Shown: positions 6,046-58,403, numbered from the stretch's first letter. The stretch is DNA of 64,000 nucleotides from an uncultured Bacteroidota bacterium (GCA_937124965.1 CAKZLB010000046.1:100776-164775), one strand, 5' to 3'. The notes: generated by a model not told the origin, from the letters alone. Made by a program: numbers and translations.

Positions 6046-8451
6046 ATGAGAAAGACAATGTTGAGATGGATTTATTTTACAGTGTTGATAGTCTTTGGTA
6101 GCACCTTGTGCTTTGGTCAACAGGTTCGGATAACTGGGTCTGAAAATGAACCGATATCAGAAGTTGATGCGTTGATTTATTCAAAACGAAATCAAACCGC
6201 GTTATCGTCGGATGAAAACGGTATCATTCGATTAAATACCACCGTCTTTGATTCAATTGTTTTTTTTCACCCTTCTTATTTCAGGAAATCACTTAGCCCA
6301 GAAGCCCTGAAAGCGGCAAATAACAATGTTTCGTTAGATGTGAAGGTATATGTGGCACCGACGCTTTATTTCAGACATGATCCTGATTTTGAACGACAAA
6401 AAGATCAGCCAACAAAGCTGGTGACAATGAAGCCAAAGGACACGAAATTTTTCAATCCACAAACCACTGCAGATTTATTAGGGTTAAGCAATCAAGTATT
6501 TATTCAAAAATCTCAAATGGGTGGCGGAAGTCCAATGATACGTGGTTTTTCTGCCAACAATGTGCTTATTGTGGTTGATGGGGTAAGGATGAATAATGCT
6601 ATTTTTCGAGATGGAAATATTCAAAATATTATTACACTTGATGCTAATCTCATTGACCAAACCCAAATAGTTTTTGGCCCAGGGTCTGTCTTTTACGGTA
6701 GCGATGCAATGGGAGGTGTTATGGCGTTTGAAACTAAAACACCTTCAATAGATTCCGGAGCACATTATGATGGAAATGTAATGTTGCGAACTGCTACTGC
6801 CAATAGAGAAAATTCTTGGCATGTTGATTTAAGCTATGGCAAAGGAAAGTTTGCTGGTTTGAGTAGTATTTCTATCTCAAATTTTGGCGAATTGCGAATG
6901 GGTAATGATGGACCCCAAGAATACACCAGACCTTTTTTTAGCGAATACAATGGCTCCACTGATACAATTATCAGAAATGACGACCCTAATGTTCAATACT
7001 TTACAAGTTACAGTCAGGTAAATATCAACCAAAAGTTTCGATATAAACCAGATAGCTTGAATGACTTTGTTCTACATTTTGGATTAGCTACATCTTCCCC
7101 AATTCCACGCTATGACAGACTACTTCAAACCAGAAACGGTTTACCAAGATATGGCGACTGGTATTATGGTCCGCAGAAATGGACCCAGTTAAACGGTAGG
7201 TATTTAAGAATTTTCCCTAAAAAAGTAATCGCTGACAAACTGACTACAACCATTGCATACCAAAGATTTGAAGAAAGTCGCTTTGTACGGCCTTTTCGAA
7301 GTTTTGAGTTGGAAGAAAATAAGGAAAACGTTGATGTCTATTCGCTAAATATTGACTTAGACAAAAAGATAAATAAACTTGATGTTATGTATGGAGTTGA
7401 ACTGGTTTCAAACCTAGTTTCTTCTTCCGGTCAGGGAACAAAACTCGATTCAAACATAACCTTTGACATAGCGACTAGATATCCAGATCAGAGCACGATG
7501 AATACAGCAGCTGGGTATGTGAGTTTAAAAAGAGAGTTTGCAAAATCATGGCTCATTACTGGTGGTGCACGGCTGACTTACATTTCCCTTAATGCTCCAT
7601 TCAAGAATAGTTTTTACAATTTCCCATTCCAAGAAATTAACTTACAAAAATCTGCATTAAGCGGAAGCGTTGGTTTGCGCAAAATCATAAACAAACGATC
7701 ATTTATCTACGGAAGTGTTGCTTCTGGTTTCAGAGCGCCCAACATAGACGATATGGGTAAAATATTTGATAGTCAGCCGGATAGAGTAATCGTTCCAAAT
7801 GAGAATTTAAATCCTGAATATTCATATACCGGTGAAATTGGTTTTCAAGCCGATATCACCAAAAAGGTAAGCGTTCTCGTTAATTCATATTATTCGGTCA
7901 TTGACAACATAATTGTTCGAGAGGATTTTCAATTAAATGGAAGCGATAGTCTTTTTTATAATGGAGAGATGATGCGTATTCAATCTCTTGTTAATGCGAA
8001 CCAAGGTACAATTTCTGGATTAGAACTGCAGGTTAATATTGAGCTAACAAAAGAACTTGACGTTAAATCCTCGTATAACATTATTTCTGGAAGCACGAAA
8101 GACGGTTTACCAATTAGACATGTTACACCAAATTTCGGAAACACCACTATTTCTTGGAAACATAGCAAGTTTAATGTTATCGCTTATGCCAACTACAATG
8201 CTGAGTTGTCTAATGCCAGTTTATCACCATCAGAACAATCTAAAATCCATTTATATGCTAAGGACATCAATGGACTTCCCTACTCTCCCGCATGGTATAC
8301 AGTTAACTTAAAAACTGCCGTTACCTTTTCAAAATCTCTTAACCTAACATTAGGTTTGGAAAATATACTAAACAAACGCTATAGACCATACAGCTCAGGC
8401 ATTTCCGCTCCCGGACGCAATCTTATAATAGGATTGTATAGTAAGTTTTGA
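6046..8451 (+). CDS. TonB-dependent outer-membrane receptor with N-terminal carboxypeptidase-regulatory-like domain
   Basis: Signal peptide. Plug motifs GGGSPMIRGFSANNVLIVVDGVRMNNAIFRDGNIQ. Long beta-barrel with C-terminal ...LIIGLYSKF (terminal Phe). Confidence 0.85.
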   Translation: MRKTMLRWIYFTVLIVFGSTLCFGQQVRITGSENEPISEVDALIYSKRNQTALSSDENGIIRLNTTVFDSIVFFHPSYFRKSLSPEALKAANNNVSLDVKVYVAPTLYFRHDPDFERQKDQPTKLVTMKPKDTKFFNPQTTADLLGLSNQVFIQKSQMGGGSPMIRGFSANNVLIVVDGVRMNNAIFRDGNIQNIITLDANLIDQTQIVFGPGSVFYGSDAMGGVMAFETKTPSIDSGAHYDGNVMLRTATANRENSWHVDLSYGKGKFAGLSSISISNFGELRMGNDGPQEYTRPFFSEYNGSTDTIIRNDDPNVQYFTSYSQVNINQKFRYKPDSLNDFVLHFGLATSSPIPRYDRLLQTRNGLPRYGDWYYGPQKWTQLNGRYLRIFPKKVIADKLTTTIAYQRFEESRFVRPFRSFELEENKENVDVYSLNIDLDKKINKLDVMYGVELVSNLVSSSGQGTKLDSNITFDIATRYPDQSTMNTAAGYVSLKREFAKSWLITGGARLTYISLNAPFKNSFYNFPFQEINLQKSALSGSVGLRKIINKRSFIYGSVASGFRAPNIDDMGKIFDSQPDRVIVPNENLNPEYSYTGEIGFQADITKKVSVLVNSYYSVIDNIIVREDFQLNGSDSLFYNGEMMRIQSLVNANQGTISGLELQVNIELTKELDVKSSYNIISGSTKDGLPIRHVTPNFGNTTISWKHSKFNVIAYANYNAELSNASLSPSEQSKIHLYAKDINGLPYSPAWYTVNLKTAVTFSKSLNLTLGLENILNKRYRPYSSGISAPGRNLIIGLYSKF

Positions 8452-8465
8452 TTAATAGAGCTAGA

Positions 8466-8531
8466 GTGAATAGATTATAGTGTAAAGTGAGTAGTGTATA
8501 GTGTATAGTGAATAGTGAATAGTTTGTAGTT
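8466..8531. repeat. About nine tandem copies of heptamer TGWATAG (tgaatag/tgtatag/tgagtag ...)
   Basis: Seen directly in the intergenic region between the TonB receptor gene and the next CDS. Confidence 0.6.
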
Positions 8532-8627
8532 AATAACACTTAGTTTAAAGTGAACAGTTAATAGTAGTTAGAATTAAAAGTCCCAAAGGAGCATAACAGA
8601 GTTTTCTGTTTAATTAAAAGTTAGAAC

Positions 8628-9422
8628 TTGAGTGATTTGAGTCAAATATCATTAACCAGATACTTCCAAACGTTTTTGACGAATGTGGAAGACATTGAAG
8701 CACCTAAACGCTTTTCAAATCCTTATAAGGTAAACCCTCATGAATTGGCTCAAATTGCGTGTAACGAAGTGAAACACTTTTTGTCGAATCAATCAACCAT
8801 ACCGCACAACTTTGGGTTAGGAAAGCATTCGGAAATAAAGCCTATTGGCAAAATGTTCGGAGTACTTGTTGTTGAAAATGAAGATAATTCAATTGGTTAC
8901 ATCACAGCGTTTTCTGGAAAACTGGCAGGCGGTAATCATCATGCTCATTTTGTCCCTCCGGTTTACGATGCCTTGACTGAAGGTAGCTTTGTTAATGTCG
9001 GAATGACAGAGTTGACCGAAATAAATCAGGAGATAACTAAACTTAGAGAAGACAATTCCAATGAAGGATTAGGTAAGCTAAAAACAGCAATAGATAATAG
9101 AAGAATTCACTGCACTGCGATCCTTGATAAAATCGTAGACAGTTATTTCTTTCTCAACTCTGACGGAATAACACTTGGCTTACGAGAAATATTTGAAAAG
9201 AAACTCAACAAAAAACCTCCAGGTGGTGCTGGTGAATGTGCACTTCCAAAATTACTTCAATTTGCATTTTTGAATAAACTTAAGCCAATCGCAACGGCGG
9301 AGTTTTGGTGGGGCAAAACAGACAAAGCCAAAGTGATGAATCACGGTGAATATTACCCTTCTTGCACTGACAAGTGTGAGCCAATTCTTGAACATATGTT
9401 ATCAGGAATTGAACTCGAATAA
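8628..9422 (+). CDS. Conserved hypothetical protein with C-terminal His/Cys cluster
   Basis: 264 aa with no signal peptide. Motifs GKMFGVLVVENEDNSIGYITAFSGKLAGGNHHAHF and GGAGECALPKLL...PSCTDKCEPILEH. No family assigned with confidence. Confidence 0.5.
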   Translation: MSDLSQISLTRYFQTFLTNVEDIEAPKRFSNPYKVNPHELAQIACNEVKHFLSNQSTIPHNFGLGKHSEIKPIGKMFGVLVVENEDNSIGYITAFSGKLAGGNHHAHFVPPVYDALTEGSFVNVGMTELTEINQEITKLREDNSNEGLGKLKTAIDNRRIHCTAILDKIVDSYFFLNSDGITLGLREIFEKKLNKKPPGGAGECALPKLLQFAFLNKLKPIATAEFWWGKTDKAKVMNHGEYYPSCTDKCEPILEHMLSGIELE

Positions 9423-45175: not shown

Positions 45176-47449
45176 TTAGTTTTTCACTGTTACAAACCAC
45201 ATGTCAACTTCCCCTTTGCCTTTTGCCTCAATCTTACCTCTGTGTTCAAAATCGAAGTGTGGTTCATCTTTGATGATTTCATAGGTGGTGTTGGAGATGT
45301 TGACCTTCCCCACTTCACCAGCACTTTCCATGCGGCTGGCGGTGTTTACCGTATCACCCCAAATATCGTATTGGAATTTGGTTGCACCAACAATACCAGC
45401 CACAACAGGACCGGTATGAATACCCGCTCTCATTTCAAAAGCAGGTTTGCCAGCCGCATCATTTTCTGCTTTGCGCGATGTTATAAACGCTTGCATTTCT
45501 AATGCAGCCAATACAGTATTCTTCGTTGATTCGGCTGTTGGTATAGGCAAACCTCCGGCCGCCATATAAGCATCTCCAATGGTTTTGATTTTCTCTACGT
45601 TGTACTTTTTACAAATGGAGTCAAAGGCTTCGAAGCAGATATTGATTTCTGCCACTAGCTCTTTGGCGCTGAGCTTTGCCGATGTCTGTGTAAATTCCTT
45701 GAAGTCGGTGAAGAGAATGGACACGTTTTCAAAATCACGGGCTTCGGCTTTGCCATTTTCTTTGAGCTCTGCAGCTATATCTGCAGGGAGAATGTTTAGC
45801 AATAGATTGTCGGAACGGTCTTTTTCTTTGGAGATGGTGTCTCTTGATTTTTTAATATAGCGGTTACGAGAATACAGTCCGCCTGCAATTAGTAGCAACA
45901 GCATTCCACCACCTGCCAACATATTTCTCGTTCTGTTCTTAATAGCAACTTCTTCTTGGTGGGCTTCTTGCACTAGACGGGCTTCTTCGGCTTTTGCAAT
46001 GCTGTCTTGCAATATGGTCTTGGCAAACTCCATTTGTTGGAGTTTTTGGGTAGTTTCTTGTGCATTTAAACTGTCATCAATGACTTTCATTTTTTCCATG
46101 TATATCAACGCCATATTGCCGTTACCGATGGCTTTGTAGGACTGGTAAATGCATTGACATGGACCGCTCTGATCTTTCAAAACATTTACTTCTTCAGCTA
46201 GTGCCAACCCTTGCATACAATATTTAAGTGCTTCGTCGTATTGTCTTTTTGAAAGGTAAATATCTCCAATATTCGTAAAAACACCTGATGTTCGCTTTTT
46301 AAGCCCAAATTGTTCATATTGTTTTAAGGAACGATGAAAATATGCTAGCGCGTTTGTGTAATCACCTTGCCTACTATAAACAAGACCAATATTGTTCAAA
46401 AGGTCTGCAATCAACTTTTCAAAAACAATCTCTTCTGCAATTTGTAAAGCTTGGTTGTAATAATCCAATGCCATAGTATAGTTACCCTGGTCAGAGTATA
46501 CATTTCCTATCAAATTTTGAGTTGCAGCGACGTCGTTTTTAAGTCCTAGGCTTGTTGATAAATTTAGGGAACGGTTGCAATACTTCAATGCTTCGGTGAA
46601 GTTTTCTTGATACAAGTAAATTATGCCAATATTAGACAAACAAAGTGAAACTCCTCGTTCGGACTTTGCCCCTTCAAACATTATTAATGAACGCTTAATA
46701 TATTCAAGAGCTTTGTCGTACATACCTTGTTCAACGTATATACTTCCGATGTTAAAAAAACTTCCTGCAGTATTTAAACTATCCTCAATTTCTATATTAT
46801 ATTTAAGTTCTCGATTGAAAACGTTTATGGCCATAGCGTATTTACCCTGCATCTTGAATAATTTACCAAGAGAATTTAAAGCAGTTCCAACTCCTGCTTT
46901 ATAGCCAACCTTTTCAGAAATAGTGATGGACTGATTTACATATTCAATTGCTTTGTCTAAATCGCCTTGTTGCTCATAAACGTTCGAAATTCTAGCCAAC
47001 AGCTTTGCAACCCTTCTATCTTCGCCTAATTCTTCATATATCTTTAGTGCATAATTGTAGTTCTCCAAGGTTTTGGTGAAGTCTTTTTTATTGAAATATG
47101 AAGCTGCTATATTATTGAATCCCTTTGCCTCACCCAATGGGTAATTATTTTTTTTACTGTAGGCAATTAACCTTTCTGAAAGAGCAATGGCTGTGTCTGG
47201 ATTGGATGTTACATATCCGGACCAAATGTAATGTTGGAAAGCCTTGGTCCGGCTTGAATCATGTTGTGTTTCATCTTGCCAAACGCCGTATAAGGAGTCT
47301 AGGTTTTGCCCATGCGCAGAATTAGTTCCAATAGCTACCGGGAGCGAAAAACTGATTAAAGTTAAAAGTGAATAGTTAAGGATTCTAGTTTTCATAATGA
47401 GTCGGGATTTCACTGCTTTTGATTTTGTTTTTATAAAGGTATCTCTCAT
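45176..47449 (-). CDS. TPR-repeat sensor adenylate/guanylate cyclase (class III cyclase homology domain)
   Basis: N-terminal signal/TM and about 10 TPR units (…YNQALQIAEE…). Also a TM helix, a coiled coil and a C-terminal cyclase domain (FTDFKEFT...GDAYMAAGGLP...RAGIHTGPVVAGIVG...WGDTVNTASRMES). Alternative start at 47395. Confidence 0.85.
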   Translation of the reverse strand: MRDTFIKTKSKAVKSRLIMKTRILNYSLLTLISFSLPVAIGTNSAHGQNLDSLYGVWQDETQHDSSRTKAFQHYIWSGYVTSNPDTAIALSERLIAYSKKNNYPLGEAKGFNNIAASYFNKKDFTKTLENYNYALKIYEELGEDRRVAKLLARISNVYEQQGDLDKAIEYVNQSITISEKVGYKAGVGTALNSLGKLFKMQGKYAMAINVFNRELKYNIEIEDSLNTAGSFFNIGSIYVEQGMYDKALEYIKRSLIMFEGAKSERGVSLCLSNIGIIYLYQENFTEALKYCNRSLNLSTSLGLKNDVAATQNLIGNVYSDQGNYTMALDYYNQALQIAEEIVFEKLIADLLNNIGLVYSRQGDYTNALAYFHRSLKQYEQFGLKKRTSGVFTNIGDIYLSKRQYDEALKYCMQGLALAEEVNVLKDQSGPCQCIYQSYKAIGNGNMALIYMEKMKVIDDSLNAQETTQKLQQMEFAKTILQDSIAKAEEARLVQEAHQEEVAIKNRTRNMLAGGGMLLLLIAGGLYSRNRYIKKSRDTISKEKDRSDNLLLNILPADIAAELKENGKAEARDFENVSILFTDFKEFTQTSAKLSAKELVAEINICFEAFDSICKKYNVEKIKTIGDAYMAAGGLPIPTAESTKNTVLAALEMQAFITSRKAENDAAGKPAFEMRAGIHTGPVVAGIVGATKFQYDIWGDTVNTASRMESAGEVGKVNISNTTYEIIKDEPHFDFEHRGKIEAKGKGEVDMWFVTVKN

Positions 47450-51471: not shown

Positions 51472-54348
51472 CTACAAATTAAAAACGGATGGATAACCAA
51501 CGAGTATTGTCTTAACGCGTTGATCTTGGAAATACGGCTCGTTTTGAAGCAGATGTAAGAAATCGCCATGCCTAATGTTTATTTCAACATTCCATGTGTG
51601 ATACTGAATGGCTGGCGAAATCTGGTTTTGCAATTGAGCTTTAACAAAAGTATACAGAGCTGCATCAAAAGAAATACTGCTCACTTTTTGATATTTCAAC
51701 TGCTTGATTAGTTCTACTGCCTTATTTCTCTGTTCATCTTGAGTCATTTGAGCAATCTCAGTCGGTAAATAATAACTTACGTCAAATCCCTGTTGAGCAA
51801 TTAATGAAACGTTATAATCCGTTGCACTGGTTTCAACAATCAATTTCTTCTTTAAACCAAAAAGACTGTCAATTTCATTTAATCCACGGATACAGCGTTG
51901 CAGATTTTCCTTGTTGATATTCTTTATATCTAACCAAACTTTGGATACGTCTCTTAAGTCAACCGAAATCAAATAGTCTTTCAGTTGTGTGTTGCTCATG
52001 GCATCATCTTCACCGTGACCAACAAGTAACTGACCATTGACAATTTTTATGTCTAATTCGATCACTTCAAAGCCATCACGTTGCACTTCGTTCAATTTCC
52101 CAAAAGAATTTACACGATGTATTCCTACCCGACTTAGCTGATTGAGACTTTTTAATGAATCTTTATTTGTTAAGGTATTTGTATACTGATTTGACGGTGA
52201 ATCATACAATAGTCGACCTCCTTTTGTCTTGAAGGTATCCACTGCAAATCGAAAATCGGTTAGGTCATAAACGGGATTATAGTACGGTGTTTCCACTCCA
52301 GTAAGACTCAACGCTAATTGAAAGAACAAATCATTTGAAAACCTCTGCCCCTTTGAATCCTCAACAGCATCCCATATCAATGGATATCTCTCCTTGTATT
52401 CCTTATCCGCCCAAATAAACATGGGTATTTGAGTCATTCGATAGGTAAATTGTCCCGAATTATGGCCTCGTCCACCACTCAAATCTTCTGCATGATCAGC
52501 AAAATACGTCATAAGCTTTACATCTCCAGGAGCATCACTCAGGACGTCTTGTATTTGGCCTAATACATAATCATTGTACAAAATTGAGTTATCATAAGCT
52601 TCCCATGTAGAAACTTCTCGATCAGATCCAAAATCACTTTTACCTCGTGAAGGTAGTTTCTTAAAGGATGCTGGATACCTCTCGTCGTATTTACCATGAT
52701 TTCCTAATAAATGGATAAAAATGGCCTTATTCTTTGAAGACTTTGTATCAAGAATTTTCTCTAATTCAGGTATTAAGGATTCATCGTAGGGACTTTTAGA
52801 AACAGCCTCTCCGATGTTCTTATTGACAAAAATCTGCTTCTTGCAACCGCTCGCTATTGCTGAAACGATGTTATCCCAATTACTCAGTTTTACTTGATTG
52901 CTTAACCAAACGGTTTCAAAATCAGCAGCGTTTAAGATGTTTATCAAACTTGGCACCTCGGTGTACTTCAAACCATTATATTGATTCGATTGGGTTAAAG
53001 CGTCCTGCAACACCATAATGGTATGGGTATGACTTGAATAAGCCTCGCTAAAAACTTCAATTTCTCTCCGCGAATTCATAGAATCTAAAAACGGAGTGGT
53101 TTTGCGGTGATACCCATACAACGACATGTGCTCTTTGCTTTGAGATTCGCCAATCACAAATATGTATGTTTCACCAGTTTCGTCTTTTGAGGCAGTTATG
53201 CTCTTAGGTTGATTGAATCGGTTTTGAACCTCATTAAACTTCGCTATCTCTTCGTAATATTGGAAGTATGCTGCCGAAGTATCTGTCAGGAAATTGCTCG
53301 AACCGATCAATCCAACCACAACTAAGCCAGACAAAATCATTGCAATCAAATGGTTTATTTGCAAACTCTTTTTGGCAATTCTATTTTCTATCCATAAAAG
53401 AAAAAATGGAACTATTAAAAGCAGCACCAAGGCTCCGATAGTTAAGACATTCAGTTCAGAAATGGCAAATTCGAGGGTTTCTGAAATGTTCGACTGCAAC
53501 ACCGCGACAATGGTATCGTAATCTATTCTAAAACCAAATCGTTTGTAGTTCCATACAAATCCAGCTAAAATAACGACGACAGCTAAAAGCAGATAGTCGT
53601 AAATTAAAACAAGGATTCCGCTAATGAATCGTATCGGAAATTTTGACACCAGAAAACGCAACAAGGCGAGTCCCATAAAACCAAATACGAATCCAATCAT
53701 TGGAATAATCCACTCCGTTGAAGGATACAAATGTTCATTGTAAACAGACAGTAGAAACGCTAAACTTGGTAGAACAAAGTGATACCCTTTAACAAAGTAC
53801 ATCAGTATCAACCCACACAAAAAGTATAAGAGGATTACGACGTAAATAAGCAATTGATTTTTAGAATTACTAAGCTCAAATTTTACTCCAACCTCAGAGT
53901 TGCTATGCGCCGACGCACGAACGTGTATTTTAAAATAATCACCTTTTCTAAGTTTTATACTTCTTACTTGAACCGAGTTTAAAACATCAAAAGAATCAAT
54001 ATCTACACCATTAATAGCATACAAAAGTTGACAACCAGTCTCGCTTTTTTTAGTTTGAAATTTAAACCGATAGAACCCAGATGTTTTAATAAACAGTTCG
54101 GCTGTTGCTGTTTGGCTTTGATACGCAACAAAATCAATGACCCCATTGTAATCCACTACATAACCATCTGAAGTGTCGGTTTGAATTGCAAGTGAATATT
54201 GGTCATGATTAACCGCAACCGTTGCTTTATTGAACGGTTTTAATATCATCACAAGGGCAAGTAAACTAAGAACAAATAGCATCCATCGAAGCCAATTATA
54301 CCAAGCCCTACTGCCTTTCGACTTTACTATTTCCCCTGATTCTTCCAA
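51472..54348 (-). CDS. Large multidomain membrane protein: N-terminal beta-rich domain + polytopic TM + EptA-like sulfatase-family (phosphoethanolamine transferase) domain + C-terminal GDPD-like phosphodiesterase domain
   Basis: Sulfatase block TYIFVIGESQSKEHMSLYGYHRKTTPFLD. C-terminal IHRVNSFGKLNEVQRDGFEVIELDIKIVNGQLLVGHGED resembles the GDPD HR...E..D block. Five or more TM helices between them. Confidence 0.7.
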   Translation of the reverse strand: MEESGEIVKSKGSRAWYNWLRWMLFVLSLLALVMILKPFNKATVAVNHDQYSLAIQTDTSDGYVVDYNGVIDFVAYQSQTATAELFIKTSGFYRFKFQTKKSETGCQLLYAINGVDIDSFDVLNSVQVRSIKLRKGDYFKIHVRASAHSNSEVGVKFELSNSKNQLLIYVVILLYFLCGLILMYFVKGYHFVLPSLAFLLSVYNEHLYPSTEWIIPMIGFVFGFMGLALLRFLVSKFPIRFISGILVLIYDYLLLAVVVILAGFVWNYKRFGFRIDYDTIVAVLQSNISETLEFAISELNVLTIGALVLLLIVPFFLLWIENRIAKKSLQINHLIAMILSGLVVVGLIGSSNFLTDTSAAYFQYYEEIAKFNEVQNRFNQPKSITASKDETGETYIFVIGESQSKEHMSLYGYHRKTTPFLDSMNSRREIEVFSEAYSSHTHTIMVLQDALTQSNQYNGLKYTEVPSLINILNAADFETVWLSNQVKLSNWDNIVSAIASGCKKQIFVNKNIGEAVSKSPYDESLIPELEKILDTKSSKNKAIFIHLLGNHGKYDERYPASFKKLPSRGKSDFGSDREVSTWEAYDNSILYNDYVLGQIQDVLSDAPGDVKLMTYFADHAEDLSGGRGHNSGQFTYRMTQIPMFIWADKEYKERYPLIWDAVEDSKGQRFSNDLFFQLALSLTGVETPYYNPVYDLTDFRFAVDTFKTKGGRLLYDSPSNQYTNTLTNKDSLKSLNQLSRVGIHRVNSFGKLNEVQRDGFEVIELDIKIVNGQLLVGHGEDDAMSNTQLKDYLISVDLRDVSKVWLDIKNINKENLQRCIRGLNEIDSLFGLKKKLIVETSATDYNVSLIAQQGFDVSYYLPTEIAQMTQDEQRNKAVELIKQLKYQKVSSISFDAALYTFVKAQLQNQISPAIQYHTWNVEINIRHGDFLHLLQNEPYFQDQRVKTILVGYPSVFNL

Positions 54349-54477
54349 TTATTGTATTCTCGGCGCAAACATACAATATCAAGACTTCACTTTTTAGGAC
54401 GTTTCTTATGCACTTTTTACTAAGTAACCTTTATTGTTACATTGTTTTGTAACAACTTTGCCGCTTTAAGAACGCAC

Positions 54478-55746
54478 ATGTTAGAAGTACAGCATATTAG
54501 AGAAGATTTCGAAGGCATTAATGGCCGTCTTTCAAAAAGAGGGAAAAGTTTTGAAGATGCATTGAACAAAGTGCTTGAACTAGATGATCAACGCAAGCAA
54601 ACACAAACTACGTTAGACGGTATGTTGGCCGAAATGAATGCGATTTCGAAAGAAATCGGCATCTGCTTTAAATCAGGGAAACGAGATGAAGCGGAAGCAC
54701 TCAAAGCCAAAACTGTTGAAATCAAAGAATCTTCAAAGCAATTGGAAAATACGCTAAAAGAAACCATAGAAGAATTGACCAATGCGTTAACTCAAATTCC
54801 TAACGCACCGCACGATTCTGTTCCAAATGGAAAAACTCCCGAAGAAAACGAAATTGTACTTTCTCATGGAGACATGCCTGAATTAGCGCACAAACTTCCA
54901 CACTGGGAACTTGCTGAGAAATATGATTTAATTGATTTTGAACTTGGTGTAAAAATTACTGGAGCTGGTTTCCCTGTGTACAAAGGGAAAGGTGCAAGAC
55001 TACAACGTGCGTTAATTAACTTCTTTCTTGACGAAGGATTGAAGCACGGATACAACGAAGTTCAACCACCGATTTTCATTAATGAGGCATCCGGTTTTGG
55101 AACAGGTCAATTACCCGACAAAGAAGGTCAGATGTATCACATGACGGTCGATAACCTATTTGCGATTCCAACGGCAGAGGTTCCGATTACCAATTTATAC
55201 CGAGACGTAATTGTTAAAAAAGAAGATTTCCCAATTAAGAATATGGCGTATACACCATGTTTTAGACGAGAAGCAGGAAGTTACGGTAAAGACGTTCGTG
55301 GTTTAAATCGCTTGCATCAATTCGACAAAGTCGAAATCGTTCAACTTGCGCATCCTGATGAATCGTATACCATTTTAGAAGAAATGAGTTCATATGTTCA
55401 AAGCTTGCTTCAAAAACTTGGATTAAACTACCGAGTATTACGATTATGTGGCGGAGACATGGGATTCACCAGTGCTTTAACGTACGACATGGAAGTGTAT
55501 TCTGGTGCTCAAGAACGATGGTTAGAAGTTAGTTCTGTTTCGTGTTTTGAAACATACCAAAGTAATAGGCTAAAACTTCGATTTAAGAACGAAAACGGCA
55601 AAATGCAATATGCCCATACGTTAAATGGAAGTGCACTTGCGTTACCTCGAATTGTTGCAGCCTTATTGGAAAACAATCAAACCGAAAACGGAATTGAAAT
55701 GCCAGAGGTATTACGACCGTATTTGGGTTTTGATCGGATAGATTAG
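54478..55746 (+). CDS. serS: Seryl-tRNA synthetase
   Basis: N-terminal coiled-coil arm and class-II motifs (FRREAGSYGKDVRGLNRLHQFDKVE, GSALALPR). Start set at MLEVQHIRED. Confidence 0.9.
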   Translation: MLEVQHIREDFEGINGRLSKRGKSFEDALNKVLELDDQRKQTQTTLDGMLAEMNAISKEIGICFKSGKRDEAEALKAKTVEIKESSKQLENTLKETIEELTNALTQIPNAPHDSVPNGKTPEENEIVLSHGDMPELAHKLPHWELAEKYDLIDFELGVKITGAGFPVYKGKGARLQRALINFFLDEGLKHGYNEVQPPIFINEASGFGTGQLPDKEGQMYHMTVDNLFAIPTAEVPITNLYRDVIVKKEDFPIKNMAYTPCFRREAGSYGKDVRGLNRLHQFDKVEIVQLAHPDESYTILEEMSSYVQSLLQKLGLNYRVLRLCGGDMGFTSALTYDMEVYSGAQERWLEVSSVSCFETYQSNRLKLRFKNENGKMQYAHTLNGSALALPRIVAALLENNQTENGIEMPEVLRPYLGFDRID

Positions 55747-55774
55747 AGGCCAAAAACATTTTAATAAACCATAA

Positions 55775-56908
55775 ATGAATCGAATAATAATCATTGGAAA
55801 CGGTTTTGACCTCTCGCATGACTTAAAAACTAGTTATGGCGATTTTGCCCTGCATCACATAAAACTTGCCTATCACAAGTTAGTGGATAAAAACTCTTCT
55901 GGCTCTAAGTTATTTAGTCTGCAAAGAGGAGATTCGTTCTATGACCATGAAGAGGTAAAAGATATTGACACTTATCGTTCTATGGTTAAAAACGGTAGTA
56001 TTATTGTTTTGAAACCGAATCAGACTGGAAATAATGTCAATAATAGGCTTTTTTCGGACTCTTTAGATTTTCTAATAGACCAAAGATGGGTTGATTTTGA
56101 AATATCTTTTTATCAATCTTTAACAGAAGTTTTGGATAAACCAAATTTGTATATAAAAAATGGACGACTAAATCGAGATGGTTTATCGTATGTTGCGGAG
56201 AGAAACAGACAACTTGAAGAAATTAAAGTTGAACTAGAAAAGTATATTGTTACTCAAGTAATAAACAAAACTGAAGTGGTTCAATTTGATTCTTACATGA
56301 ATCTTTTCTATGAACGATTATTTCACCACAGTACTGATCCAAAATATCCTCAACAAACTTGCTTTCTTAATTTTAATTACACGAATACTTTAGAACGCTA
56401 CACAAGCAAAGTCTATGTCCAAGAAGCAAAAATTGAAACTAAAAAAATCGACGTTATTAACATTCATGGAACTGCAGGAGACGTGAATAATCCTATAAAT
56501 TTTGGTTATGGTGCAGAGCTAGATGGCCGATTTAAGGAGTTACGAAATCTTCACGAAAACTCAATTTTAAAGTTTGTTAAGAGTTATGATTATCATTTAA
56601 ACTCTGATTATCAAAAGCTGCTAAAATACCTTAAAACAGATTATGAAGTGTATATATTTGGGCACTCTTGTGGTCAATCAGACGGAACAATACTCCATCA
56701 ATTACTTGACAATCCTCGCTGTAAAAGAATTAAAATTTTCCCTTTTAAAAGCTCAGAAAACTTTAGGACAATTACACAAGAAATATCTGGACACTTTGAA
56801 GATTGGAAAGAGATGTATCACAAGATAACTCCCTTCACTGAAACAGATTTATGTCCTCAGTACTCTGATCGGCATCTTATTAAAACACTTTTTCCTAATG
56901 TAAATTAA
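55775..56908 (+). CDS. AbiH-family abortive-infection protein
   Basis: N-terminus MNRIIIIGNGFDLSHDLKTSYGDF and later INIHG...INFGYG...YIFGHSCGQSDGTILHQLL reproduce the conserved AbiH blocks. Confidence 0.7.
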   Translation: MNRIIIIGNGFDLSHDLKTSYGDFALHHIKLAYHKLVDKNSSGSKLFSLQRGDSFYDHEEVKDIDTYRSMVKNGSIIVLKPNQTGNNVNNRLFSDSLDFLIDQRWVDFEISFYQSLTEVLDKPNLYIKNGRLNRDGLSYVAERNRQLEEIKVELEKYIVTQVINKTEVVQFDSYMNLFYERLFHHSTDPKYPQQTCFLNFNYTNTLERYTSKVYVQEAKIETKKIDVINIHGTAGDVNNPINFGYGAELDGRFKELRNLHENSILKFVKSYDYHLNSDYQKLLKYLKTDYEVYIFGHSCGQSDGTILHQLLDNPRCKRIKIFPFKSSENFRTITQEISGHFEDWKEMYHKITPFTETDLCPQYSDRHLIKTLFPNVN

Positions 56909-56909
56909 C

Positions 56910-57191
56910 CTACTCCTCCACCTTCACACCTTTCCAAAAAGCAACTTTCCCTTCGATGCTTTTGGCTAATTCGCTGGTTTTTGGATAGTACCACGCCGCG
57001 TCTTTGTTTTCTTGACCGTCGACTTCTACGGTGTAATACGATGCCTCCCCTTTCCATGGACAGGTTGAATGCGTGTTGCTTGGTTTAAAATATTCCTTTT
57101 TTATTGATTCTACTGGGAAGTAAGGATTTCCTTCTACATTTACGGTTTCATCGCTCTCGGCGACTACGGTATTATTCCAAATGGCTTTCAT
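56910..57191 (-). CDS. DUF427-family protein
   Basis: MKAIWNNTVVAESDETVNVEGNPYFP...STCPWKGEASYY is the DUF427 signature. 93 aa. Confidence 0.7.
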   Translation of the reverse strand: MKAIWNNTVVAESDETVNVEGNPYFPVESIKKEYFKPSNTHSTCPWKGEASYYTVEVDGQENKDAAWYYPKTSELAKSIEGKVAFWKGVKVEE

Positions 57192-57220
57192 TGTTATGCT
57201 TTAGTGTTATCAACTCGTTT

Positions 57221-57790
57221 TTACGTGTTTTGTTCATTGTTTGCTCGAAAAGATTCTTCCCAAGTCTTCACATCCTCGATGCTCGGATACAGAGAGTTTA
57301 GCTTTTTAATATACCTCCAAGGGAAAAACGCTGGATTGCGACCAAACTCTTTAGAAACAACTAGTTCTTTTATCAGACCATGCTCCACAGCATTACGATC
57401 GGCCGTAATTTCTGCTTTTTTCAAAAACGATTTACTGAAATAATATAAAACACCAAACCATGCTAAGTCCCAACTGCCCCGTAGCTTGTAATCCAACACG
57501 TGACCTAATTCATGACCCAACCAGCCTATCATCACATCGGATGGAACCCGATTATTCGGTACTTTCTTATTCTTAAGAAAGAATTTCTTCCTCATGATGA
57601 TTTGATATTCTCGTCGTTCTTTGGGTCGAAACAACGTTGGAACCTTGGGTTGTGCCAGCATAAACGAGTGTTGCGTAAAAATACCCCACCGAAAATGGAT
57701 TGGCACATTGCGTAATTCGGGATAATGCGACAACGCTTTTTCGACTTCCGCTTTAATTTTACTTGGATACTTTTTATTCCCAACCCGCAT
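57221..57790 (-). CDS. HExxH-motif putative zinc metallopeptidase-like protein (ImmA/IrrE- or DUF4157-like)
   Basis: MIGWLGHELGHVLDY with a downstream Glu/His (ADRNAVEHG). No signal peptide. Lies 29 nt upstream of DUF427 on the same strand. Confidence 0.4.
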   Translation of the reverse strand: MRVGNKKYPSKIKAEVEKALSHYPELRNVPIHFRWGIFTQHSFMLAQPKVPTLFRPKERREYQIIMRKKFFLKNKKVPNNRVPSDVMIGWLGHELGHVLDYKLRGSWDLAWFGVLYYFSKSFLKKAEITADRNAVEHGLIKELVVSKEFGRNPAFFPWRYIKKLNSLYPSIEDVKTWEESFRANNEQNT

Positions 57791-57911: not shown

Positions 57912-58403
57912 ATGAAATCAATGTACAGAGCCCTATTTTTTCTCCTCTTTTTTGCAAGTGCATCATTGACTTCTAAAGCACAGTTCAACCAACAATGTGT
58001 TGATTCTGGGAGAGTTGACCCCTTCTTTCAGTGCAACGATCCAAGTTTCTTACCTGTATGTGGTTGTAATTTGGTAACTTATAGAAACGAATGTGTAGCT
58101 AATAGAAACGGTGGTGTCAACTTCATCAATTCAGACGGAGTTTGCCCAAACGACTACATTTACGCGGAAATTTTCCCGACAATTGTTACAGACTATATTA
58201 CCCTTTACCTGCAGTTTTACGAAAAAGGTTCAGCCTTTATACAGATACGTGACACCTATGGCAAAATTATGTTTAGCCAAAATTACTTGTCTCTCACTTC
58301 ACGTATGTTTAGCCTCGATCGAAGTGGGTATGGAACTGGAATTTATTATGTCCTAGTCTCAGCAGGTAACGTTCAAAAAATTCTAAAATTTGTAGTTTTA
58401 TAA
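57912..58403 (+). CDS. Secreted Kazal-type protease-inhibitor domain protein with T9SS C-terminal sorting domain
   Basis: Signal peptide. Kazal core CNDPSFLPVCGCNLVTYRNECVANRNGGVNFINSDGVCP. C-terminal ~80 aa ...GIYYVLVSAGNVQKILKFVVL resemble a Por secretion tail. Confidence 0.6.
   Translation: MKSMYRALFFLLFFASASLTSKAQFNQQCVDSGRVDPFFQCNDPSFLPVCGCNLVTYRNECVANRNGGVNFINSDGVCPNDYIYAEIFPTIVTDYITLYLQFYEKGSAFIQIRDTYGKIMFSQNYLSLTSRMFSLDRSGYGTGIYYVLVSAGNVQKILKFVVL

Follow-up and report, generated by a model that had tools for sequence, protein, structure and literature searches.

A solitary and divergent AbiH-family gene with a predicted SIR2-like fold between serS and a DUF427 gene of an uncultured Bacteroidota bacterium

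The window analysed in this study is a stretch of 64,000 nucleotides from an uncultured Bacteroidota bacterium (GCA_937124965.1 CAKZLB010000046.1:100776-164775). An AbiH-family open reading frame (ORF) lies on its plus strand at 55775..56908; it is uninterrupted, has an ATG start codon and a TAA stop codon, and encodes 377 amino acids (aa). On the left, the ORF is flanked by the seryl-tRNA synthetase gene serS (54442..55746, plus strand; Pfam tRNA-synt_2b and Seryl_tRNA_N), which is the probable source of AbiH transcription. On the right, a DUF427 gene (56910..57191, minus strand; Pfam PF04248, 110 bits) is convergent to it, and only 1 nucleotide (nt) lies between the stop codons of the two genes. 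Since the relatives of SerS align from residue 13, the Met at this residue is probably the true start of serS. The spacer between serS and the AbiH ORF (55747..55774, plus strand, 28 nt) has no recognisable promoter or terminator: no terminator-like site was found in it, sigma-70-like sites were not above the shuffle expectation, and the Bacteroidetes TAnnTTTG motif was not found in the 475 nt upstream of the ORF. Since AbiH has no promoter motif of its own, read-through from serS seems to be the likeliest arrangement for its expression.

The protein matches the Pfam family AbiH (PF14253) with 101.2 bits (E 1.4e-28; gathering cut-off 30.9). The match spans residues 4-322 and profile positions 1-257 of 260, which is full-length and far beyond chance. 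A sequence-only reading of this DNA had assigned the gene to the AbiH family and had named the failure of a Pfam AbiH hidden Markov model search as the refuting test; the search was run, and the score is three times the gathering cut-off. The same reading had noticed a conserved N-terminal AbiH block and a later GHSxG block, both of which could be located. Since the N-terminus reads MNRIIIIGNGFDLSHDL, the first block corresponds to residues 5-17, while the second is GHSCG at residues 296-300. A family alignment of 116 sequences was made with the window protein as the reference sequence, and PF14253 is also matched by 116 of the 116 aligned relatives. There are 22 invariant columns in this alignment: G8, N9, G10, F11, D12, W105, E109, F200, N201, Y202, T203, I230, H231, G232, G244, K269, Y273, G296, H297, S298, G300, and D303. 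The GNGFD loop and the F-N-Y-T, H-G, and G-H-S-x-G blocks of AbiH are all found in the window protein. It shares with AbiH as defined by PF14253 and by DefenseFinder/PADLOC a full-length Pfam match, the N-terminal GNGFD, the later GHSxG, a length of about 350-380 aa, and the organisation as a single gene with no fixed partner. An NCBIfam search of the protein gave noise only. Judged from the sequence, the gene genuinely belongs to the known single-gene anti-phage family AbiH, as a divergent member. Of the label "abortive-infection gene" in the sequence-only reading, the family part holds, while the abortive-infection role itself is an expectation from family membership.

A word-indexed search returned 1599 homologues, all with PF14253, the best non-identical one showing 34% identity. 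An exhaustive HMMER search of 1.84 billion cluster representatives at 50% identity returned 2063 clusters at E <= 1e-3 and 315 clusters at E <= 1e-30, and among these representatives no relative of the window protein was found above about 38% identity (best 37-38%). The window protein forms a singleton cluster. It belongs to a clade in which many of the named members are Bacteroidota and no member exceeds about 38% identity to it; the named relatives come from Pedobacter, Flavobacterium, Algoriphagus, Arcicella, Imperialibacter, and Bacteroidales, and are already labelled "AbiH family protein" at NCBI. Longer homologues also exist, namely a 678-aa ORF in the contig L149 (147-2183, plus strand) and a 608-aa protein (P0191). 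Since both are much longer, they suggest fusions of the AbiH core to extra domains, which might act as sensors.

Is the gene present at the same site in related bacteria? No AbiH homologue was found near serS in any of 80 related Bacteroidota serS loci (0/80). The best of these loci (L001), whose SerS is 84% identical to that of the window, has the gene order of a sulfatase-family gene, serS, a 189-aa gene, a gene with Kazal-type and type IX secretion system (T9SS) domains, a metallo-beta-lactamase gene, a GNAT gene, and dxs. It lacks both AbiH and DUF427 at the site, and the serS stop codon overlaps with that of the 189-aa gene. A 1454-nt Logan contig (L166) was found via the DUF427 protein; its DUF427 and SerS proteins are 94% and 94.9% identical to those of the window, respectively. 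In this contig, the DUF427 stop codon comes 2 nt after the serS stop codon, with no AbiH in between. The window positions 54681-55745 and 56911-57292 are colinear with L166 at 84.4% and 85.1% nucleotide identity, while the segment at 55746..56910, which consists of the 28-nt leader, the AbiH ORF, and 1 nt, is replaced by 4 nt in L166 and is missing in L001 too. Since the flanks are colinear while this segment has no counterpart in L166, AbiH alone is the indel. The synteny comparison that had been proposed in the sequence-only reading gave a clean empty site in this close relative. The flanking genes are as that reading stated, except that DUF427 is not fixed at the site in all relatives, being missing in L001 and present in L166.

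The hallmarks of mobile-element cargo (an integrase or transposase, flanking repeats, and a tRNA target) are not found at the AbiH insertion. The only repeats around it are chance-level matches of 10-24 nt, none of them at the junctions, and neither a tRNA nor an Rfam match was found in the whole window. A Pfam scan revealed no integrase, transposase, toxin-antitoxin, or other defence gene within 10 kilobases (kb) of AbiH, and no gene for a HerA-type ATPase partner within 10 kb of the ORF. The genes scanned within 10 kb on either side encode isocitrate dehydrogenase, a pyridine-nucleotide-disulphide oxidoreductase, a sulfatase-family membrane protein, a metallo-beta-lactamase-fold protein, a GNAT acetyltransferase, Dxs, Cmk, an aldehyde dehydrogenase, and a TPR-adenylate cyclase, all of which are housekeeping. 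The solitary position between serS and DUF427, described earlier as having no toxin, antitoxin, or mobile-element partner, is borne out by these neighbours and by a census of 85 homologue loci, in which no neighbour family recurs as described below. The window copy thus differs from lactococcal AbiH genes, which are largely on integrative conjugative elements (PMC13064643), in having no surrounding mobile element. The GC content of the AbiH gene (0.322 against a mean of 0.378, z = -2.7; 0.255 at third codon positions) is the lowest of the 45 window genes, while by codon-usage distance the gene is not an outlier in the window; it is an outlier by GC content alone. Because two relatives lack the gene and its GC content is the lowest of the 45 genes, a gain in the window lineage is more parsimonious than a loss. 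The best reading is that AbiH was acquired horizontally as a stand-alone gene.

The DUF427 gene was considered as a partner of AbiH, since L001 lacks both genes at this position. In such a two-gene module, for example an effector plus a regulator or antitoxin, the nearly touching stop codons would also find an explanation. This candidate was ruled out by L166, by the neighbour census, and by the conservation of DUF427. In L166, DUF427 adjoins serS with no AbiH, which effectively refutes the module, and a DUF427 gene is found beside AbiH homologues at none of 85 loci (0/85). The DUF427 homologues are 73-94% identical across Flavobacteriia, Cytophagia, and other Bacteroidota, where they lie in unrelated contexts. 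Moreover, the two genes are convergent and deviate from the mean GC content in opposite directions (0.434 for DUF427 against 0.322 for AbiH). The module is extremely improbable; the DUF427 gene is a conserved native gene and not an AbiH partner. DUF427 is known as a beta-tent-fold domain of unknown function with no defence link (PMC4287342), and the "DUF427" in the Menshen paper is DUF4276 and is irrelevant here.

Solitary placement among core genes is the norm for this AbiH clade. Each of the five closest homologues on long contigs is solitary and has a different housekeeping setting (Band_7 and biotin synthase, Rnf, acetyl-CoA carboxylase, peptidase M20, and ClpB, respectively). No neighbour family occurs in more than 5 of the 85 homologue loci, and scans of the neighbours with Pfam and PADLOC revealed no recurrent partner and no HerA-like family recurring beside the homologues. 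Of 60 loci, 43 have an upstream neighbour in the same orientation; the gap to the upstream neighbour is at most 100 nt in 31. The neighbours that do recur among the 85 loci are alpha/beta hydrolases, tyrosine integrases, Eco57I/MmeI-type IIG restriction-modification (R-M) enzymes (directly upstream, with a median gap of 13 nt), and type I HsdS. Among 126 nearest neighbours classified with Pfam and PADLOC, there are four type IIG R-M enzymes and two each of type I specificity subunits, type I methylases, DRT2, HEPN, and integrases, the remainder being housekeeping; about 10% of the homologue loci are beside recognisable defence genes (R-M, DRT, or HEPN). In several homologue loci, including L147 (2906-5965, plus strand) and L109 (4797-5990, plus strand), AbiH begins about 13 nt after a type IIG (Eco57I/MmeI-like) R-M gene or a type I HsdS gene. 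This position behind R-M genes agrees with an earlier observation of linkage between Sir2-like genes and type I R-M systems (PMC3506569). It has also been reported that about 12% of AbiH genes co-localise with DS-37 (PMC13639185).

Distant relatives with 24-38% identity are present on 106 IMG/VR predicted viral contigs; the 80 kept (L169-L248) comprise 32 clusters. The neighbours of AbiH on these contigs include repressors, integrases, endolysins, major head proteins, and DNA polymerases. Many of the AbiH-bearing contigs form one group of 30-55 kb, with AbiH near repressor, integrase, and lysis genes. These contexts are consistent with AbiH as prophage-borne cargo. A tblastn search of the INPHARED curated phage genomes gave no AbiH match, and the single plasmid match by tblastn, in Persicobacter, is weak (22% identity). 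In summary, the clade looks like fast-turnover single-gene cargo, which is sometimes found in defence or prophage settings and is often dropped among core genes.

The housekeeping surroundings may be taken to mean that the gene is not a defence gene at all and that it encodes a SIR2-like enzyme of metabolism or regulation, specific to the lineage and expressed together with housekeeping genes such as serS. The window gene and all five closest long-contig homologues lie among housekeeping genes (Rnf, biotin synthase, ClpB, and peptidases), often less than 100 nt downstream of a co-directional gene, and the share of recognisable defence genes among nearest neighbours is only about 10%. On the other hand, a lineage-specific enzyme of this kind is difficult to reconcile with the absence of the gene at the site in a relative with 95% identical SerS and at 80 of 80 serS loci, with the lack of an orthologue above about 38% identity, as compared with 73-94% for the adjacent DUF427, and with the atypical GC content. 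Furthermore, relatives of the gene lie directly behind R-M genes and in prophage-like contigs, and the family members tested confer phage resistance. A metabolic or regulatory role is unlikely.

An AlphaFold2 model based on the 116-sequence alignment has a predicted local distance difference test score (pLDDT) of 89.5 and a predicted template-modelling score of 0.89, with no segment below pLDDT 50. In a Foldseek search against the PDB, the nine best matches are all to the SIR2 subunit of SIR2-HerA/Nezha complexes from E. coli and others (E 2.1e-5 to 6.5e-3, probability up to 1.00). Six of these matches have E <= 0.001 (8SUB, 8UAE, 8SUW, 8J4U, 8WLD, and 8SXX), while the next match of another kind has E 0.24. 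A Foldseek search against the viral structures of BFVD gave nothing at E <= 0.001. According to the model, the window protein would have a SIR2-type Rossmann fold, which superposes in part on the known structures.

The confident model also bears on whether the gene may be what is left of a defence gene, decaying or no longer active and retained by chance. The lack of a promoter of its own and the singleton cluster without close relatives would be in line with such a remnant. Opposed to this, the ORF is intact and full-length, the N-terminus fits the family consensus from residue 1, all of the invariant residues are kept, and the fold is predicted with high confidence. Decay is very unlikely.

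The core strands of the model each precede an invariant motif: residues 2-7 precede GNGFD, 194-199 FNYT, 224-229 HG, and 290-295 GHSxG. In sirtuins, the motifs are in the order of GAGxS, (T)QNxD, HG, and G(T/S)S, and a small domain is carried where AbiH has a helical insertion. All of the following coordinates are on the plus strand. The glycine-rich loop G8-N9-G10-F11-D12 after strand beta1 (residues 2-7) is encoded at 55796..55810 and is proposed, from the motif order, to be equivalent to the GAGxS dinucleotide-binding loop of sirtuins. Beta1 and the next core strand are separated in the model by an insertion of about 170 residues (residues 21-190; 55835..56344), whose secondary structure is mainly helical and which may serve as a cap or small domain and as a phage sensor. 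The alignment shows that this insertion contains the invariant W105 (56087-56089) and E109 (56099-56101). F200-N201-Y202-T203 (56372..56383) follows the strand 194-199, and N201 is the proposed catalytic Asn, which may correspond to N112 of ThsA and N226 of SaSir2. I230-H231-G232 (56462..56470) follows the strand 224-229, and H231 would provide the catalytic His that sirtuins have in their "HG" motif. The order of the two residues is the one expected of a SIR2 protein, whose catalytic Asn and His would end the core strands beta2 and beta3. Finally, the "GHSxG" block G296-H297-S298-C299-G300-Q301-S302-D303 (56660..56683) follows the strand 290-295 and may be equivalent to the G(T/S)S loop of sirtuins, which binds the ribose of nicotinamide adenine dinucleotide (NAD). 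In Staphylococcus aureus SIR2-HerA, the contacts with ADP-ribose are S55, E152, T225/N226, H287, Y352, and H412, with N226/H287 as the catalytic dyad (PMC11514289). The AbiH invariants D12, E109, N201, H231, Y273, and H297 are in the same order as these contacts, which is a suggestive parallel and not a test.

The prototype of the family is abiH of Lactococcus lactis S94, which was reportedly cloned in 1996 by Prevots et al. The prediction that AbiH is a Sir2-superfamily enzyme dates from 2012 (PMC3506569), and AbiH has since been placed in the immune "SIRim" branch of SIR2 proteins (bioRxiv 10.1101/2024.09.18.613514). A Sir2-like prediction was also made together with a proposal of NAD+ depletion in a study on AbiH, which protects Lactococcus (PMC13064643). 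The AbiH of S. thermophilus inhibits the replication of Vansinderenvirus (PMC12322248), and a Vibrio AbiH, which the phage proteins Tlaloc and Enki inhibit, gives 5.7 logs of protection (bioRxiv 10.1101/2024.06.14.598830). The mechanism of AbiH, called poorly understood in the sequence-only reading, is less obscure than that in view of the published Sir2, SIRim, and NAD+-depletion proposals; no biochemical proof was found in the literature searched.

Taken together, I consider it fairly probable that the window gene encodes a stand-alone, single-gene anti-phage effector of the AbiH family, which has a Rossmann core resembling SIR2, into which a helical segment of about 170 residues is inserted, was horizontally acquired, is expressed by read-through, and hydrolyses NAD+ with no partner needed. 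The protein is probably an NADase, which destroys NAD+ in infected cells. The gene would have arrived by horizontal transfer, as an ORF without accompanying genes, between the stop codons of the convergent core genes serS and DUF427; the indel itself is observed, while a gain is its presumed direction. It would be transcribed by read-through from serS. A phage component acting on the helical insertion or the oligomeric state may be what activates the otherwise inactive protein, as might be expected from ThsA, DSR2, and SIR2-HerA. The active site, putatively formed by the G8-D12 loop, E109, N201, H231, Y273, and G296-S298, would then hydrolyse NAD+, starving the infected cell and aborting phage replication, as suggested by the fold, the motif order, and the published AbiH proposals. 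No partner protein would be required.

Several observations weigh against this reading. The PADLOC model of AbiH (PDLC02345), which was used as a stand-in for the experimentally characterised lactococcal-type AbiH, matches the window protein weakly (28.9 bits, E 1.9e-7; residues 3-260 and model positions 2-224 of 343, the N-terminal two-thirds), and this weakness is a difference from AbiH as known to PADLOC. The template-modelling scores (TM-scores) of Foldseek to SIR2 are low (0.31-0.38, with a root-mean-square deviation of 12-16 Å). Therefore, only part of the structure superposes, and I read this part as the predicted Rossmann core. SIR2 and SIR2_2 are absent among the 25 most-matched Pfam families of the 116 members, and a sequence-profile search of the PDB gave nothing relevant. 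With hhalign, the comparison of the family profile with Sir2Tm (sequence verified as 1YC5) has a probability of 0.2%, which is not significant, and that with the SIR2 domain of ThsA (verified as 6LHX) has 0.4% for the single sequence and 0.2% with a 62-sequence profile. Since these sequence-level links are not significant, the mapping of N201 and H231 as a candidate catalytic pair is based on motif order only. No published NADase assay for any AbiH was found in the literature searched. Phage resistance by the window gene itself is a candidate function from family membership, and most homologue loci, like the window, are in housekeeping surroundings and not in defence islands. The sequence-level negatives for SIR2 are weak negatives, since the hhalign templates are shallow and of low diversity. 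The sole local hhalign alignment to Sir2Tm pairs VINIHG with VIELHG, which contains the catalytic H116, and is not significant. The best local alignment to ThsA paired non-equivalent motifs, and therefore no residue mapping was drawn from it.

The main rival leaves the family and the defence role as they are and changes the chemistry: the SIR2-like site may ADP-ribosylate a protein or nucleic acid or make a signalling nucleotide, with no bulk depletion of NAD+. Mono-ADP-ribosylation or nuclease activity was raised for defence Sir2 enzymes, including AbiH, by Makarova et al. in 2012 (PMC3506569), and the lack of an NADase assay in the literature searched leaves room for it. In addition, W105, E109, K269, and Y273 were unaligned to any sirtuin in the comparisons made, and the pocket could differ. 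However, the SIR2-domain defence effectors ThsA, DSR2, and SIR2-HerA are all reported as NAD+ hydrolases, and the sole significant fold match is to such an NADase. I regard the different chemistry as having a small but real chance.

Returning to the proposed NADase effector, its nearest known counterpart in structure is the SIR2 subunit of SIR2-HerA/Nezha (8SUB, 8UAE, 8J4U, and 8WLD), which is the only significant structural match. At 380-400 aa it is about as long as the window protein, its Rossmann core carries a helical cap, and N201/H231 would be the putative counterpart of its Asn/His dyad. It differs in the low TM-scores given above, in a sequence identity of 10-12%, and in its HerA partner, which is found neither in the window nor in the homologue loci. 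The S. aureus SIR2 subunit requires HerA for activation (PMC11514289). Since there is no HerA here, the activation of AbiH must work differently. ThsA and DSR1/DSR2 (SIR2_2, PF13289) share with AbiH the proposed logic of a SIR2-type NADase released on infection and a comparable motif order of a glycine loop, xxNY(D/T), HG, and G-x-S. In contrast to these proteins, AbiH has no SLOG or large C-terminal sensor domain and no ThsB-like signal producer nearby, and the 62-sequence ThsA profile comparison is not significant, as mentioned. The canonical sirtuins (CobB, Sir2Tm, and SIRT3) differ in that the insertion between beta1 and beta2 is much larger in AbiH and that the hhalign comparison to Sir2Tm is not significant. 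No sirtuin-type zinc-binding module is evident by eye in AbiH.

Some other genes of the region were noted as well. A 189-aa ORF at 57221-57790 (minus strand) has a GHELGH (HExxH-type) motif and no Pfam match, and may encode an uncharacterised small metallopeptidase-like protein; L001 has it with 75% identity, and L166 contains its 3′ end. The 163-aa product of 57912-58403 (plus strand) resembles, below the match threshold, a Kazal-type inhibitor domain and the C-terminal sorting domain of type IX secretion, and its gene keeps synteny with the metallo-beta-lactamase-fold gene downstream of it in L001, L002, and L004. Between the counterparts of these two genes, L001 has an extra 244-aa gene (7947-8681, minus strand) with no counterpart in the window. 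Therefore, the stretch from serS to dxs has several small indels between relatives. On the other side of serS, a 958-aa membrane protein is encoded at 51472-54348 (minus strand), whose central part is a sulfatase-family domain (PF00884), while Pfam matches nothing in its long N- and C-terminal regions; it is conserved with 55% identity in L001. Further upstream, a 757-aa protein encoded at 45176-47449 (minus strand) is a fusion of TPR repeats and a class III adenylate/guanylate cyclase domain.

The SIR2 prediction for AbiH and the phage protection by homologues from three genera were already known. New in this analysis are the nucleotide-resolution empty site with an ORF-only indel lacking mobility hallmarks, the exclusion of DUF427 as a partner, the census of solitary placement, and an explicit, putative active-site proposal. 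As a long shot, I speculate that this AbiH clade might spread as ORF-only cassettes without promoters, each inserting precisely between the stop codons of two convergent core genes or immediately after an essential gene and relying for its expression on read-through from genes such as serS, and that the product might be a stand-alone SIR2-like protein sensing phage via the 170-residue helical insertion, with neither a partner nor a sensor domain. If true, this would be an unrecognised route of defence-gene acquisition without mobile-element machinery.

With this gene, a defence family whose biochemistry is so far predicted gains a very divergent, chromosomal member from the Bacteroidota, and what is known of the family is unchanged. 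Its value is practical: the protein is small and partnerless, has a confident model with clear candidate catalytic residues (N201 and H231), and comes with a natural empty-site comparison. Therefore, it would be a convenient construct for testing the NADase activity of AbiH and the detection of phage by a SIR2 core that has neither a sensor domain nor a partner.

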